DNA from: Blastocystis sp. Blastoise
Taxonomy: Eukaryota > Protista > Bigyra: Opalinata
Reading direction: 5' to 3'
Assembly (NCBI GenBank): GCA_039096225.1
Contig: JBBPEB010000007.1
Location: 1,178,001-1,242,000, forward strand
DNA length: 64,000 bases
Positions within the stretch are counted from its first letter, which is position 1. Every line of letters starts with the position of its first letter. Shown here piece by piece: positions 10,952 through 60,772 of this stretch. Position numbers and translations under genes: made by a program. Below the pieces are notes generated by a model. That model did not search any database and was not told the origin of the DNA. It saw nothing but the letters and a program-made list of their open reading frames with translations.

Positions 10952-13900
10952 ATGAATAAGAAGTCTTCTACAACTGAATTTGAAATTGAAAAGCCTTTAC
11001 AGGTATATTCTTGTCTATTCATTTATTAATTATTGTCGACAATATAATACAATTAATATTCCTAGGCTATTCTGATTGCTGAAGATTTTATAGATAGTTT
11101 TGCTCCATTAACTTATGAAATGCCTCTTGTATATATTATCCCAATTATTCAGTTTCATGCTCTATATTTATAGGCACTTTTTCCTTTAGCTAACGTACCT
11201 ATGATCGATTATTCAATTCAATGGCTTTCTACACAGGGAGTTAAAGAAGTATATTTATAAAAATTTTTATTAATTATAGTTTATTTATTTATGAAAATTT
11301 TTATTAAATATAGTTTATTTATTTATGAAAATTTTTATTGAATATAATTTATTTATTTATGAAAATTTTTATTAAATATGATTTATATATTTACGAAAGT
11401 TTTTATTGAATATGATTTATATATTTATGAAAATTTCTATTCTAGATTTATATTGCTTTTCGATCCGGGGAAGAACAATTTAAAAAGCATTTTCAAGAGA
11501 CCAAATGGAAACTTGCGTCTTTGTAAATATTCTTTTATTCTCTATTTTAAACTTAATTTTAAACTCTATTTTATTCTTATAATTGAATTTTATTTGATTG
11601 TATATAATAGAGATGGTGAAGAAGTTGAAGATGAAGATATGAATCCCTTATTATATTTAATATCTGTTAAGAACGCATCGTGTCAAGTAGATTTACTTAA
11701 AGATATTTCTGATCGTAATTTAATTACTAGTGATCCATTCATTATTCTCACGGGAATGAGTGTCATGAACTTAGATCTTAGCACGGTTCTCAAGGTAAAC
11801 AAATATAGATTATTATGTTTATTATAGTTTTTTTTATTATCATTATTATATTTATTATATTTATTATATGTATTATATTTATTATTATACATTATTATAG
11901 TTACATAAAGAACGTGGTAAAAAAGATAAAAATAATTTATTAACCGCCATATTTAAACAAGTTCCCGCCAATCATCCTATTCGTAAATTAGACAGCGATC
12001 TTTTAGTTTTATATGATTCATCAACCAATCAATTATTAGGATATAGTGATGATATTAACGAGGCACGTGTCACTACTTCAAATATTGATATCTATTCTTG
12101 TCCAAATATCCAAGTTCGTAATGATTTATATGATACGTATATTGATGTTTGTTCAACAGAAGTACTTATTAAATTAGCTGATATTAATGATTATAGAGTA
12201 TTTATATAGATTATCATTTATTTATTAGTTTATATATATATATATATATATATATATAGGATTATCATTTAGATTTCCTTCAAGATGAAGTGAATAATAA
12301 TGAATTAGGATATCGATATTTCGGATATGTTCTCAATAGATCTTATGCAGGATATATACAAGTATATATATATTTAATGTTTATTATTATTATTATTATT
12401 ATTATTATTATTATTATTATTATTATTATTATTATTATATATATATATAGGATATTCGTTCTTATGCACAAATTACTAGAGATATACTGAGAAGATGGAC
12501 ATATCCTTATGTATATATATATATATATATTCATGATTATTTATAAAAATAGACCCCAGAAGGTTCTCTTTCTAATGAAAATCAAAGTGTTTATAATGAT
12601 CAGAAAATATATTATAAGAATATTTATAAAGATTATGATACCATTCTTAAACCAGAAACATGTATATATATATATATATAACTATATATATATATATATA
12701 GTAATTGGAAATGAAACACATTTAAAAGGAAACTGTTCTATTGGCTCATGTGTTGTTGGTAGAAACAATGTCATTAGTGTTGGTGTAATTATAACGAATA
12801 GTATTTTATGGAATAATATACAAATCGATGACGGAAGCAGCGTCGATAACTGTATCATTGGACATAATGTATATATATATATATATATATATATATATAT
12901 ATCTTTTATTATTATTATTAATATATAGGTTCACATTGGCAAGAATTGCCATCTCTCGCATTGTGTACTTGGATCGAATGTTATAATTGGTGATTCTATC
13001 TCATTAACCAACAAGAAGGTTTATAGGTATATATAAATAGTGTATATTCTATTTTCTAAATATATTTTGAATATCTATATATATAGAAATGATCTTTATA
13101 CTCCTAATGACGACGAGTCCGTCACAATTGACGCATCTATTTCGTTAGGAATAAACGGATGTGGTGTTGTTACTAAGGTATATTTTATTATACTTATGTT
13201 AATAATAATAATTATTATTATTATTATTATTATTATATGGAAATAAATAAATCAATATATATATATATATATATATATAGGATGAAGTAGAAGTAGATGT
13301 ATGTGATCCAGTAATAGAAAATAGAAGAAATAATATAAATAATGAAATTAATGAAAAGAATTTGAAAGGATGCTTTGGTTTTGGTGATGATGAAGAAGAG
13401 TTTAATATTGATTCTGGAATTAATTCGATGAAAAAGTTCAGAGAAGGAATACAAGAGTTTATTGAAGAATGCATATATGTATATATATATATATATATAT
13501 ATATATATTTAAATATATTTATGATTATGATTATTACTCTATATATATATAAAGATGTTGATATTAACGATACATTTATGCAAATGAATTGCTTTAAAAT
13601 GTCTGAAAATAAAACTTATGAAGATACACTTAGAGTTACTGTTCCTTGTATTTTGAACACTTCTGATTTTTCATTATTAGAAACTAAACCTGTTATATAT
13701 ATATATATATATATATATATATATATATATATATATATATATATATATATATATATATATATATATATATATATATATATATATATATATATATATATAT
13801 ATATATATATATATATATATATATATATATATAGGAATCTTATAAGAAATCAATAGTTCAATTATTATCGAAATATGGACTGTTAATTAAGAAAAATATT

Positions 13901-14476
13901 CTAGATGATAAGAATAGATTGGCCGTTATTCGCTCGCTCCAATTCTATATTCAAGAAGAAAAACCAGTTTTAAAAGATTTATTTGGTTTCTTTGTAGACA
14001 CCTTCCTATCTCAACATTTTATTAATATGAATACCGTAGAAGAATGGGCACATCAAGTATATATATATATAATATATATAATAAAATATAATATATAGAT
14101 TGATAAAGAAGATTCATCATCGTTTTTTACTGGTGCAGATATACATTCGATTCTGTCTACTATACACGAGGGTGATGTTGTTACTGATACTGATGACGAC
14201 GATAATAGTGTTGTCTCTTCTGAAAGCGACTCTGAAAGCGAATCAGATAGTGATTCAGACGATTCAGATAGTGGTTCAGATAGTGATTCAGACAATTCAG
14301 ATGGTGATTCAGACGATTCAGATAGTGATTCAGACAATTCTGAAAGTGATTCAGACAATTCTGAAAGTGATTCTGAAAGTGATTCAGACAGTGATTCATC
14401 ATCATCATCTTCTTCTGACGATGACGATGACGATGACAGTACATCCGATTCTGACGATTCAAAATCTAACGAATAA
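10952..14476 (+). CDS. EIF2B5: Translation initiation factor eIF2B epsilon subunit, multi-exon
   Basis: [11 protein letters not shown]...[23 protein letters not shown] (NTP-transferase-like domain), [14 protein letters not shown], a left-handed beta-helix ([24 protein letters not shown]), a W2-like region ([10 protein letters not shown]) and an acidic S/D tail. Confidence 0.9.
11250..11445 (+). repeat. Intronic 34-bp minisatellite (about 5-6 degenerate copies)
   Basis: Unit TTATTTATTTATGAAAATTTTTATTAAATATAGT fills eIF2B-epsilon intron 3. Confidence 0.8.
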
Positions 14477-57612: not shown

Positions 57613-58091
57613 CCACGGGAGAGAATACGTTATCGATGAATATATTGTAGAGCTATATATATATATATATATAGTTCTTTCTTTATTATTCTATTGTCTG
57701 TTTCCTATACATAATTTTTTTTTCCATTTTGAAAATGACATACTTTTTACACTTTTATATTTTTTGACATATATATATATAATTATATTATAAAATTGTA
57801 ATATAATTTATATAATCGTGTTATTTTTCTAGCATTATTCTATAAAAGGGGGATTTTTAGTCAGTTTTTTTATTTTTGTTTTGTTTCTTCTTTATATATG
57901 AGTATTTAATTGAGTTGTTTAAATGACTTGTCATTATTCAAATGATACGGGACAAAACATTATACAATCGTTTATAAAGAATACTTTATAGGAATCATAG
58001 TAATATTATTAACAAATAATAAAAAGAGAGATTTCAAACAACAACAAAAAGTCACTTTTCGTAACTAGAAATGAATGAAATTCAGATGTTC

Positions 58092-60772
58092 TCATACAGA
58101 TTCAGTAATCACTGGAATCCTAGAAGGGATATTCTGAGAATTTGATACTTCAGTTGTAGAGAGATTATTATTATTTTCTGAAATATTATTATTATTTTCT
58201 GAATTATTATTTTCTGAATTATTATTATTTTCTGAATTATTATTATTTTCTGAATTATTATTATTATTATTATTATTATTATTATTATTATTATTATTAT
58301 TATTATTATTATTATTATTAGTAACAGTAGAATTATTATTATCCATATTGTCTATATATAGAGAATGTGATTCATTTGCTTGTATATCTGTAGGAATAGA
58401 ATCAGAAATAGGTTTAGAAGGAGAAGAAGAAGGAGAAGTATTAAAACATGGCTCTGAATCGACTGGAATAGTGATTTCAGCAGCATTCACTGGGTTTTCA
58501 GCAGCTTCAACAGCTAGATAGATTGAATAGCATATTGTTATTCTAATAAATTATGAATGTATATCTATATACAATTATTGTTTTGCTTATCTTGTGCACA
58601 CTGTTTAGATCCGGGAATACAAAACATAATAATAACAAAGAGAAGAGTTAAACCACCTAGAGAATAGATATATGTATATAGAATGAAAGAGAGTATATAT
58701 ATGATGTAATATATCATATATATTAATAGATATTAATGTGTATAGATATTATAGATTATTAATAGCCATATATATTTCTAAGTAAAGCTAATAATAGTTA
58801 ATAAATTTATCATTATATATATATAGGTATATATATATATATACCCCACATTCCTTCACAGATCATAGTTGCAAAGTTATTGACATCATAAAAACTGCCA
58901 AATATAGTAGGAACGAATATATATACAGATTGAAGAACTATTGTCGCTATATAAACATATAATATATATATATAGGTATATATATAGGTATATATATACC
59001 TATAGAGAATACTTCTCCTTGACAACTTGGAGGTGCTTGAGCCTATATATATATATATATATATATATATATATATATATATATATATATATATATATAT
59101 ATATATATATATAATATATTATCACAACATATTGTAGAGAAAGAATAAGAATATAATAAATACTGAAAGAATAACCACGGGGATTGGTGATACAATAGAG
59201 TATCCCAAGAGAACGAAAGCAACGGCCACAAATGCCCAAAGAAGCGACGGAACAAAAGCCATAGAGAGAGACGCAAGGACTATATACATATAATATATAT
59301 ATATATATATATATATATATATATATATATATATATATATATATATATATATATATATATATATATATATATATATACATAATATAATAGATCCACTTAA
59401 ACCAATGTATAATATATACATATAGAGTGATATATATAAATAAATATATATATATATAGAGAGAGAGAATCAATAATATATATATATAACTATATTATAT
59501 ATACATATATTGACTTTAAGAGTAGTTTGAAGGAAAGGGAATAAAAACGTTTGTCCCAAAAATGAGATCACACCTGCCATTGTTAGAAGTATACTATATA
59601 TATATATATATATATATATATATATATATATATATATATATATATATATATATATATATATATATATATATATATATATATATATATATATATATATATA
59701 CCTGAATTGAACTGTTGTAGCATCAAATACATCCATAATATATAATCCATAACTATATATATTACATATATATATTACATATATATATATATATATACTA
59801 TCCACTAAAAAGAGTTGTTACTGATTCACTTGTAAAACGAATTATAAGAGAAAAGATCATAATAGCATTCCAATGAATTTTCTCTTTTTTATTTTTCTCT
59901 CCTTTATGATGATCTTTCAATCCTTCAAGTTCCTTATTAATGTCATCAACGTATTGGGATTCTTCTAAACTTAAAGCATTTTTCTTCAATAAACATTTCT
60001 TCTTCTTCTTCAATTCTTGTTGTTTTAATACTGTTTTATTTGTTTCTTTTAAGAGGAAGAGAGAAATAAGAAAAATAATTAAAGCTAAACCAGCTGCAGT
60101 CCAACTAAATCATATATATATATATATATAGAATCATAATATATTGAATATATATATGTAGAATAATGTATAGATATAATATTTATATATACAAAGGAAG
60201 AAGGAGTGTTATATTTCCTAGAACTCCTCCTAAGGCAGGTCCAATAATATAAGCAATGGAATTGAATCCTCCTAGACGACTTAAATAAGCACCTCTCTGT
60301 TCAACTGGAATGACATCAGCAATGTATGCAGAACCAATAGTAGAGCTTCCTCCTAAAAGACCTGTATATGCTCTAAATAACACAAGAACCCACATCGCTT
60401 GTGAGAAAGACTGAAATAAAGGTCCTAAAATATATTAAAAACAACAATTGACACCAACAAAAATTGATATACCCGTAATAGATCCAAATAAAGAAATCAA
60501 CAAAAACAATCGTCTACCATACTTGTCGGATAATGTACCCATAAAATACGCACCTAATAAAATAAGAATTACACTCAAATCACTCTTTTTTGTCTAAAAC
60601 TCATACTGAAAACTTGTGTGATAGCGTAGCTACTGTGAAACAAACCAATTTCAAATGAACTTCCATTCAATTTTTCAGCCAAATAGGGAACAATGGGCAT
60701 GATAAAAGAATATCCCAATGCATCAATGATAATAGTGACGTACACAATGATCAAATCACAGTTAAATTTCAT
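58092..60772 (-). CDS. MFS transporter, TetA/DHA1-like, multi-exon
   Basis: [28 protein letters not shown] (motif A), [21 protein letters not shown] and IIGPALGG (motif C). Confidence 0.9.

Follow-up and report, generated by a model that had tools for sequence, protein, structure and literature searches.

Introns made of an AT repeat between GT and AG in Blastocystis sp. Blastoise, the probable extreme of a repeat continuum

Introns with dinucleotide repeats at both ends are known from teleosts and lampreys, in which, according to the accessible part of the source (PMC4691745), (AC)m-(GT)n introns with GT-AG borders have no pyrimidine tract and are predicted to form a bridging hairpin. The AC/GT repeats of fish are described there as directional, co-occurring across introns and not exons, required, and independent of U2AF2 (PMC4691745). 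The introns analyzed here, which consist of an AT repeat between GT and AG, share the terminal dinucleotide repeats, the missing tract, the predicted hairpin and the GT-AG borders, but their repeat is self-complementary and includes the splice sites, its two ends do not co-vary, and it tracks promoter distance. Moreover, the missing tract does not set these introns apart from the other introns of the same DNA.

Within the genus, human-subtype Blastocystis has introns of 30 nt (PMC5608401 and PMC10690189, available parts; here loci L001-L011, which we infer to be Blastocystis). They have in common with ours the prohibitin positions, GT-AG borders, the lack of a tract, and a frequent purine at -4 with T at -3. 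Their length, however, is nearly constant, their 5' site is loose, and they carry TRA with A at -7 to -9, as against variable lengths of 35-284 nt, a strict GTAT and no branch motif in the window. Introns of Trichomonas, Giardia, Yarrowia and C. elegans likewise have no tract and hold their 3' information in the last few bases; however, the first three keep a fixed branch-to-AG distance and a strong branch consensus, the TTTCAG acceptor of C. elegans is T-rich rather than alternating, and repeat-only introns are not described for any of the four in the accessible text of PMC2483917. Plasmodium falciparum is comparable in its very AT-rich genome and lack of a convincing branch motif, but its 5' motif is GUAANW, and repeat-only introns are not mentioned in the part of PMC3089446 available. 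The 15-nt introns of heterotrich ciliates are similar in carrying little sequence information and a conserved branch A, but there both length and A are fixed, whereas our introns vary in length and offer many equivalent A's (PMC9004412, available part). Nonconventional structured introns of the euglenid type (PMC6221363, available part) were excluded, all introns considered here having GT-AG rather than non-canonical borders. No description of GT(AT)nAG introns was found in the accessible literature searched; in its accessible part, the tortoise Blastocystis genome paper goes no further than noting that introns are longer and low-complexity DNA more abundant (PMC10690189).

In this study, we analyzed one 64-kb stretch of DNA (the window), whose encoded proteins are 100% identical to deposited proteins of Blastocystis sp. 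Blastoise, an isolate from tortoise gut. The intron set comprised 153 modelled introns in 17 genes, 44 of them backed by annotation, RNA or relatives and 109 by our own gene model only, the intron term of which was trained on the flippase introns. Left out of the counts were the annotated intron 13378-13554 and twelve doubtful modelled introns, which probably conceal exons, are GC-rich or were guesses at gene ends; owing to these omissions, a few intron pairs treated as adjacent jump over an excluded intron. Four of the host genes are:

10952-14476, plus strand: coding sequence of the eIF2B-epsilon gene (deposited protein P0002)
15441-20512, minus strand: coding sequence of the P4-ATPase flippase gene (deposited protein P0001)
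32264-35823, plus strand: modelled family-less gene hosting the intron at 34336
36375-40405, minus strand: modelled unassigned gene hosting the intron at 36557

The host of the 34336 intron had no Pfam match in the two exons searched, and a comparison of its exon with representative sequences returned 12 short fragments, none extending to the junction. An Rfam scan of the window gave no matches. A divergent U2AF65-like gene is present within the window; in a homolog search with its exon, none of nine candidates scored. Removal of the GT-AG intron at 13479-13554 would break the frame; the deposited protein has a 177-nt intron in its place and so loses a conserved-looking helix; at 18003-18093 the second of two AGs is used as acceptor.

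A pure structure, GT(T)(AT)18-69AG, was found in eight of the 153 modelled introns:

13692-13834, plus strand: GTT(AT)69AG, eIF2B-epsilon gene; used by deposited P0002, junction colinear with yeast eIF2B-epsilon
18164-18207, minus strand: GT(AT)20AG, flippase gene; used by P0001, frameshift if retained, protein region poorly conserved
18552-18605, minus strand: GT(AT)25AG, flippase gene; used by P0001, junction PISLK/VTMEI gap-free against ATP8A1
34336-34389, plus strand: GT(AT)25AG, family-less gene; gene model and frame logic only (in-frame TAG if retained)
36557-36626, minus strand: GT(AT)33AG, unassigned gene; gene model, with a match of RNA contig X1 ending exactly at 36627, then 57 further letters
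42117-42156, minus strand: GT(AT)18AG, E2F-like gene; the shortest (40 nt), gene model only
42336-42385, minus strand: GT(AT)23AG, E2F-like gene; gene model only
59594-59701, minus strand: candidate GT(AT)52AG, MFS transporter gene; gene model, in frame and stop-free if retained, the least proven

The initial annotation had named five of these stretches, all of which lie where it placed them, and its identification of the flippase, eIF2B-epsilon and MFS host genes was upheld; 36557-36626, 42117-42156 and 42336-42385 (all minus strand) are additional. Its description of the five as pure dinucleotide repeats is exact for four, which are GT(AT)nAG, and inexact for 13692-13834, which has one extra T.

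Excision of 13692-13834 (143 nt, a frameshift if retained) and of 34336-34389 restores the reading frame, as had been claimed, and retention causes a stop or frameshift in seven of the eight pure introns. Deposited proteins use three of the five named introns (18164, 18552 and 13692), and the junctions at 18552 and 13692 are gap-free or nearly so against human ATP8A1 and yeast eIF2B-epsilon, respectively. GT-AG ends with a conserved open frame on removal were found for three named introns, and four more follow by frame logic. Since 59594-59701 is 108 nt long and stop-free in frame, the frame does not force its removal; the unspliced MFS stretch at this position had no Pfam match. RNA runs X3 and X4 gave no matching contigs, which does not demonstrate absence. 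Contigs from other RNA data reached one end of one pure intron (36557-36626) and confirmed splicing of three neighboring AT-rich introns:

36872-36946, minus strand: mixed intron, AT runs close to each end; joint 36871-36947 (CT..AC) in X1 and an equivalent joint, two letters different, in X2 from another study
37145-37190, minus strand: AT-rich mixed intron; the loose end of X2 after 37144 equals the exon beginning 37191, and the spacing of the X1 record agrees
37240-37278, minus strand: AT-rich 39-nt intron ending AAG; 53 letters of X1 between 37283 and 37144 equal exon 37191-37239 plus 37279-37282

GT-AG ends, frame closure, deposited proteins and RNA joints in neighboring mixed introns together make it very likely that the pure introns are genuine spliceosomal introns. 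A different reading is that repeat purity and length come from long-read assembly and polishing, or that the junctions reflect jumps of reverse transcriptase over hairpins while the mRNAs keep the repeats. Local irregularities next to repeats (one T too many at 13694, the out-of-frame 13479-13554 and the second AG at 18003-18093) and the RNA coverage of only one end of one pure intron might point this way. However, the exact GT and AG ends with frames closing at conserved motifs, the broken frame or added stop in seven of eight pure introns, the contigs from two studies that splice AT-rich neighbors at modelled sites, and the 11.8-12.7% low-complexity DNA across tortoise isolates (PMC10690189, accessible part) make such an artefact very improbable.

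The initial annotation had also proposed an (AU)n hairpin that draws the two splice sites together and takes over from U2AF65, for which the fish introns (PMC4691745, available part) offer a precedent. As it anticipated, folding predictions at 30 C turn the pure introns into complete hairpins, with energies of -17 to -86 kcal/mol. When folded alone in silico, all eight showed end-to-end pairing with P 0.85-0.87, and in context own-end pairing exceeded 0.5 in six of the seven tested; the same value was exceeded by 35 of 145 mixed introns, and pairing was below 0.1 in 79 of all 153. The ends, however, do not co-vary. The expected correlation between 5' and 3' run lengths was absent among the window introns (partial r 0.04, 95% CI -0.13 to 0.20, n=145), the odds ratio for runs at both ends of distal introns was 0.59 when the pure introns were set aside and 0.91 when they were counted, and run correlation was 0.18 across exons versus 0.16 across introns (rho). 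Chimeric controls matched the real introns, with end-to-end pairing of 0.276 in 72 distal mixed introns versus 0.247-0.302 in six chimeric sets. The self-complementary repeat also pairs across exons: (AU)n pairing was 0.12 with the 3' end of the previous intron versus 0.15 with its own (n=62), and the pure intron at 42336 pairs preferentially with the previous intron (0.57). In addition, the predicted stem of the pure introns would occlude +3 to +6 (P 0.95-0.98) and the A at -8 (P 1.0). The statement that many mixed introns carry repeats at both ends holds for 36 of the 153 introns (runs of 7+ nt, the eight pure included), a complementarity that is trivial for a self-complementary repeat. Because the lack of a tract is general as well, extending to repeat-free introns and to relatives, a structure-defined intron class was not supported, and the hairpin appears to be an improbable splicing signal.

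Analysis of splice signals revealed 5' GTAT in 137 and 3' TnTAG in 129 of the 153 introns, and each in 30 of the 37 introns lying no more than 500 nt from the start codon, thus also without repeats. YTRAY, CTRAY and T tracts were not enriched in the last 40 nt, in agreement with the claimed absence of a pyrimidine tract and branch consensus; tract enrichment was seen in neither proximal nor distal introns, repeat-free first introns included. The last 30 nt of the pure introns contain no UnA, and their branch A must come from the repeat itself, as had been suggested. TRA with A at -9 to -7 was present in only 18 of 153 window introns, and TRA at -11 to -7 was depleted in distal introns (8/88 vs a background of 0.20). 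Among the 29-32 nt prohibitin introns of relatives, TRA with A at -7 to -9 occurred in all 25 distinct introns (14 position-by-lineage groups; one 23-nt misalignment in L002 was dropped) and a pyrimidine tract in none. The corresponding introns of the window are:

48641-49743, plus strand: four prohibitin introns, codon and phase (amino acids 84, 113, 189 and 276) common to the 29-32 nt introns of L001-L011

The first three of the four retain GTATGT and T tracts. A background-subtracted whole-locus scan gave weak signals both for 30-nt introns (370 spans vs 231-345 at other lengths) and for TRA at -8 (0.087 vs 0.046), and the aligned prohibitin introns were therefore used for the motif of relatives. 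As tract and branch motif are missing window-wide, and the tract in relatives too, their absence requires no hairpin. These results suggest a spliceosome operating without any branch-site motif.

We found that introns form a continuum of purity, numbering 20, 29, 35, 29, 10, 15, 6 and 9 in ascending alternation bins, with a slight rise at the top (nine introns >0.97). Other introns are filled by non-folding repeats such as (TAT)n, (TATT)n, (AAT)n and Tn, and the shortest pure intron (40 nt) lies at the general lower length limit (35-40 nt). Runs of 10+ nt abutted the 5' site in 42 of 145 non-pure introns (10.5, maximum 21, in 2000 interior rotations) and the 3' site in 31 (8.2, maximum 20), so that contact with splice sites was about four times the chance level. 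The farther from the start of a gene, the more AT runs there are, in introns as well as in 3' spacers, and the two intron ends gain them independently. None of the 20 introns closest to the start codon (up to 300 nt) held a run of 10+ nt, as against 77 of the 88 lying more than 1 kb away; the longest run grew with distance from ATG (rho 0.59; p 0.0005 on permutation within genes), also in the 44 independently backed introns (rho 0.56). Divergent spacers held one run in 5282 bp versus 15 in 3027 bp of convergent spacers (5.0 per kb), and the density in intron interiors was 4.5 per kb.

Several sources of these patterns were considered. GC-biased gene conversion was not supported as the cause of the gradient: intron GC drops from 0.16 to 0.06, with flat exon GC3 (rho -0.004). 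Two of nine codon tests increased along genes (Ile ATA from 0.26 to 0.52, p 0.0035; NAT, p 0.03). 6mA at ApT is a lead only; the supplement of PMC12695648 lists two AMT1 and one AMT6/7 for B. hominis, and a general link between 6mA and ApT content is absent according to the accessible part of that source. Palindrome closure, C(TA)nG, was rejected, as complementary flanks occurred in 18 of 66 interior runs versus approximately 16 expected (hand calculation).

For all seed lengths between 3 and 13 nt, a run at a splice site was more likely to extend further than one in the interior. With seeds of 9-13 nt, the probability was 0.73-0.91 for 5' sites, 0.70-0.83 for 3' sites and 0.50-0.59 for interiors, so that the excess persisted even beyond the reach of U1. 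AU runs at splice sites might be a selected signal, with an RNA-binding protein or co-evolved U1/U2/U6 recognizing single-stranded (UA)n in place of the TRA of relatives. Such selection would fit the greater extension, the fourfold abutment over rotations, the TRA depletion in distal introns, the U2AF65-like gene in the window and the independent enrichment of the two ends, which is expected if the runs are protein-read. However, promoter-proximal introns do without runs (0/20), terminal runs are short or absent in many distal introns, convergent spacers hold the same runs at similar density to introns, and no factor or snRNA change was seen within the window; we consider a selected signal rather unlikely.

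The reading we favor, with a probability of roughly 57%, is that the pure introns are the extreme of the AT-repeat continuum, likely produced by slippage and likely removed by the ordinary major spliceosome, with the branch A set by distance from AG. The ends GTATAT and TATAG would provide alternating seeds for slippage, and selection may preserve these terminal seeds, so that splice-site runs would outgrow interior ones. The interior could then be stripped away, either by a deletion that joins the two terminal runs or as interruptions are lost, down to an intron of some 35-40 nt. GUAUAUAU could pair with a canonical U1 through +1 to +3 and +6 to +8. The A's at -6, -8 and -10 would be supplied by the repeat, in the region of the branch motif of relatives (-7 to -9). 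In heterotrich 15-nt introns, the conserved branch A sits near -6. The ordinary major spliceosome would pick the branch A by its distance from AG. The hairpin, in this view a side effect and not the signal, would have to be unwound, or its formation forestalled by loading during transcription. Two observations count against the slippage model: the excess extension past U1 reach, which selection for longer runs explains equally well, and the slight rise in purity at the top of the continuum.

A rewiring of intron recognition in tortoise Blastocystis seems unlikely. It would involve loss of TRA, a co-evolved U2 or (UA)n-binding U2AF-like factor reading the repeat as branch site and acceptor, and a promoter-proximal chromatin zone (possibly ApT 6mA) excluding repeats from first introns; if true, a bare microsatellite can serve as an intron.

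With neither unique internal sequence nor UnA, a GT(AT)nAG intron is a natural minimal substrate for asking how the branch A is chosen without a motif, and lariat mapping is feasible because the isolates are cultured. How splice signals co-evolve with U2, SF1 and U2AF can be approached by comparison with close relatives, whose introns are fixed at 30 nt and carry a strict TRA at -8. A second pattern of note is that genes sharply exclude AT runs from their first few hundred bases.

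Mapping the deposited P4-ATPase flippase protein (P0001) exactly onto the window gave 22 GT-AG introns, including 18164-18207 and 18552-18605, and the deposited eIF2B-epsilon protein (P0002) gave 15, with 13692-13834 among them; the last flippase exon and one eIF2B-epsilon exon were each 100% identical to these proteins, both of which their source names Blastocystis sp. Blastoise. The remaining genes were modeled by dynamic programming trained on the flippase introns (20 of the 22 recovered), and 153 introns in 17 genes were used, with 13 doubtful ones left out. GC content was 23%. 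The genome paper gives this name to a tortoise isolate, states 21-23% GC, describes introns as longer and more variable than those of human subtypes, which measure 30 nt, and favored introns with RNA support in its annotation (PMC10690189). Neighboring genes and local oddities were as follows:

150-2470, minus strand, U2AF65-like gene (exon 2113-2301, PDB matches)
13378-13554, plus strand, intron oddity in eIF2B-epsilon (gene model against P0002)
24117-26159, minus strand, METTL16-like RNA methyltransferase (PF05971)
54801-55914, plus strand, Tc1/mariner-type transposase (DDE_3, HTH_Tnp_Tc3_2); its C-terminal part runs on in a different frame (55681-55914), and by eye its inverted ends lie near 54670 and 56100

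Eight of the 153 introns were pure AT repeat between GT and AG (seven GT(AT)18-52AG and one GTT(AT)69AG), confirming the GT-(AT)n-AG introns of the initial annotation; those at 18164, 18552 and 13692 are used by the deposited proteins. The 18552 junction lies inside the conserved PISL-VT motif, gap-free against ATP8A1, and yeast eIF2B-epsilon aligns colinearly across the 13692 junction. Intron 34336-34389 was called by frame logic, and 59594-59701, in-frame in length and without a stop, is the least proven. Pure introns are very likely a real variant of U2-type introns, of which we found no description in the literature searched. Elsewhere in eIF2B-epsilon, GT-AG intron 13479-13554 is one base out of frame; P0002 instead uses a 177-nt GTTTTG intron and thereby loses a W2-like helix. 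The region would be better explained by a GC-AG intron at 13471-13554 or by a single-base error in the assembly.

Sequencing runs of two studies matched the window: X1, presumed to be RNA and perhaps from the source culture, and X2, which differed at 18 letters in ~340. Over 36615-37365, transcript support for mixed introns came from an X1 contig that skipped 36872-36946 (ends CT..AC) and exactly fitted the spacing of 37145-37190 and 37240-37278; X2 shared the first joint, and its loose end equals the exon beyond 37190. For pure introns it consisted of an X1 match ending at 36627, the donor of 36557-36626, with 57 contig letters remaining beyond. Support for complete removal of pure introns from RNA is indirect.

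The farther an intron lay from the ATG, the longer its longest alternating AT run tended to be: rho was 0.59 overall and 0.56 among 44 independently backed introns, and the within-gene correlation was r 0.50 (p 0.0005). Runs of 10+ nt occurred in 0/20 introns within 300 nt of the ATG vs 77/88 beyond 1 kb, and G at donor +5 dropped along this gradient from 6/18 to 0/30. One run was present in 5.3 kb of divergent spacers, compared with 15 in 3.0 kb of convergent spacers, the latter resembling intron interiors; introns in unannotated 3' UTRs could contribute. Purity varied continuously, with a small bump at the top end, and in other introns the filling repeat was a non-folding one, namely (TAT)n, (TATT)n or Tn. 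Across the window, AT runs were nearly missing from first introns and divergent promoter spacers, and the divergent, intronless histone H3 and H4 genes (22784-23809) had none inside or adjoining. As a lead only, ApT 6mA might explain the repeat-free first few hundred bases. The ATA share of Ile codons climbed from 0.26 to 0.52 along genes, so the repeat gradient may reach exons too. Exonic (AAT)n expansions at 9050-9419, 33568-33811 and 43200-43410 encode up to ~120 Asn; the slippage regime proposed for introns would act in coding DNA as well.

The initial annotation had also proposed a structure-defined class folded by (AU)n hairpins, after fish (AC)m-(GT)n introns, which are defined by repeat co-occurrence across introns, not exons, and by required pairing (PMC4691745). 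Run lengths in our non-pure introns correlated across introns (rho 0.16), across exons (0.18) and between successive donors (0.28). After control for position, the 5'/3' run-length correlation was r 0.04, and distal introns showed no excess of runs at both ends (OR 0.59; 0.91 with pure introns added). Pure introns did fold completely in silico, but the predicted stem takes in +3 to +6 (P 0.95-0.98) and the -8 A (P 1.0). Predicted end-to-end pairing of mixed introns equaled that of chimeric controls and was almost nil in 79/153 introns, and for donors, pairing with the end of the preceding intron was predicted almost as frequently as pairing with the end of the same intron. A weak genome-wide effect may exist. 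By the folding predictions and statistics applicable to one window, the pure introns are not members of the structured repeat-bridged class.

Most likely, an ordinary major spliceosome recognizes GTAT and TnTAG, which were present in 137/153 donors and 129/153 acceptors (30 each among the 37 introns lying no more than 500 nt from the ATG). With canonical snRNAs, GUAUAUAU would form U1 pairs at positions +1 to +3 and +6 to +8, at -5.9 kcal/mol against -8.7 for GUAUGUAU, and repeat-U2 pairing would be weak (-1.5 vs -3.0 kcal/mol). The branch A would be picked by AG distance, the repeat supplying A at -6, -8 and -10. Alternating intron ends are likely permanent slippage seeds in promoter-distal DNA, from which runs would grow, and interiors would be deleted until a 35-40 nt minimum. 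Alternatively, (UA)n itself could be a selected splice signal: runs touched donors (42 vs 10.5 in rotations) and acceptors (31 vs 8.2) in excess and extended more readily there than in interiors, the main evidence that AT runs could be functional. A METTL16-like gene is present though T occupies +4 in 91% of donors, which in yeasts goes with METTL16 loss.

The claimed lack of a polypyrimidine tract and branch consensus was borne out: in the last 40 nt of introns, YTRAY (46 vs 56.5 shuffled), CTRAY (2 vs 10.9) and T4+ tracts (41 vs 61.8) were not enriched, likewise in proximal introns alone. The U2AF65-like gene is likely a paralog; the 13 best PDB matches of exon 2113-2301 were all human U2AF65 RRM1, all weak (E 0.0075-0.03), and the modeled protein also carries another, degenerate RRM, an extended N/S/T linker and a C-terminal RS-type repeat. 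Inspection by eye showed neither an RS domain at the N-terminus nor a UHM at the C-terminus. Prohibitin at 11 gut-metagenome loci, which we infer to be Blastocystis, was 81-83% identical over the query exon. In the ten loci aligned, introns were 29-32 nt, with four positions common to the window gene. These relatives also have, at codon 30, a 43-45 nt first intron that the window's prohibitin gene lacks; its 3' part is pyrimidine-rich and resembles a minor intron. All 25 distinct short introns (14 position-by-lineage groups, not independent) lacked a pyrimidine tract, had loose donors and carried TRA with its A at -7 to -9, whereas only 18/153 window introns had such a TRA, and TnA was wholly missing from the last 7-30 nt in 19. 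Thus, the missing tract is common to the genus as sampled, and the missing branch motif distinguishes the window's lineage.
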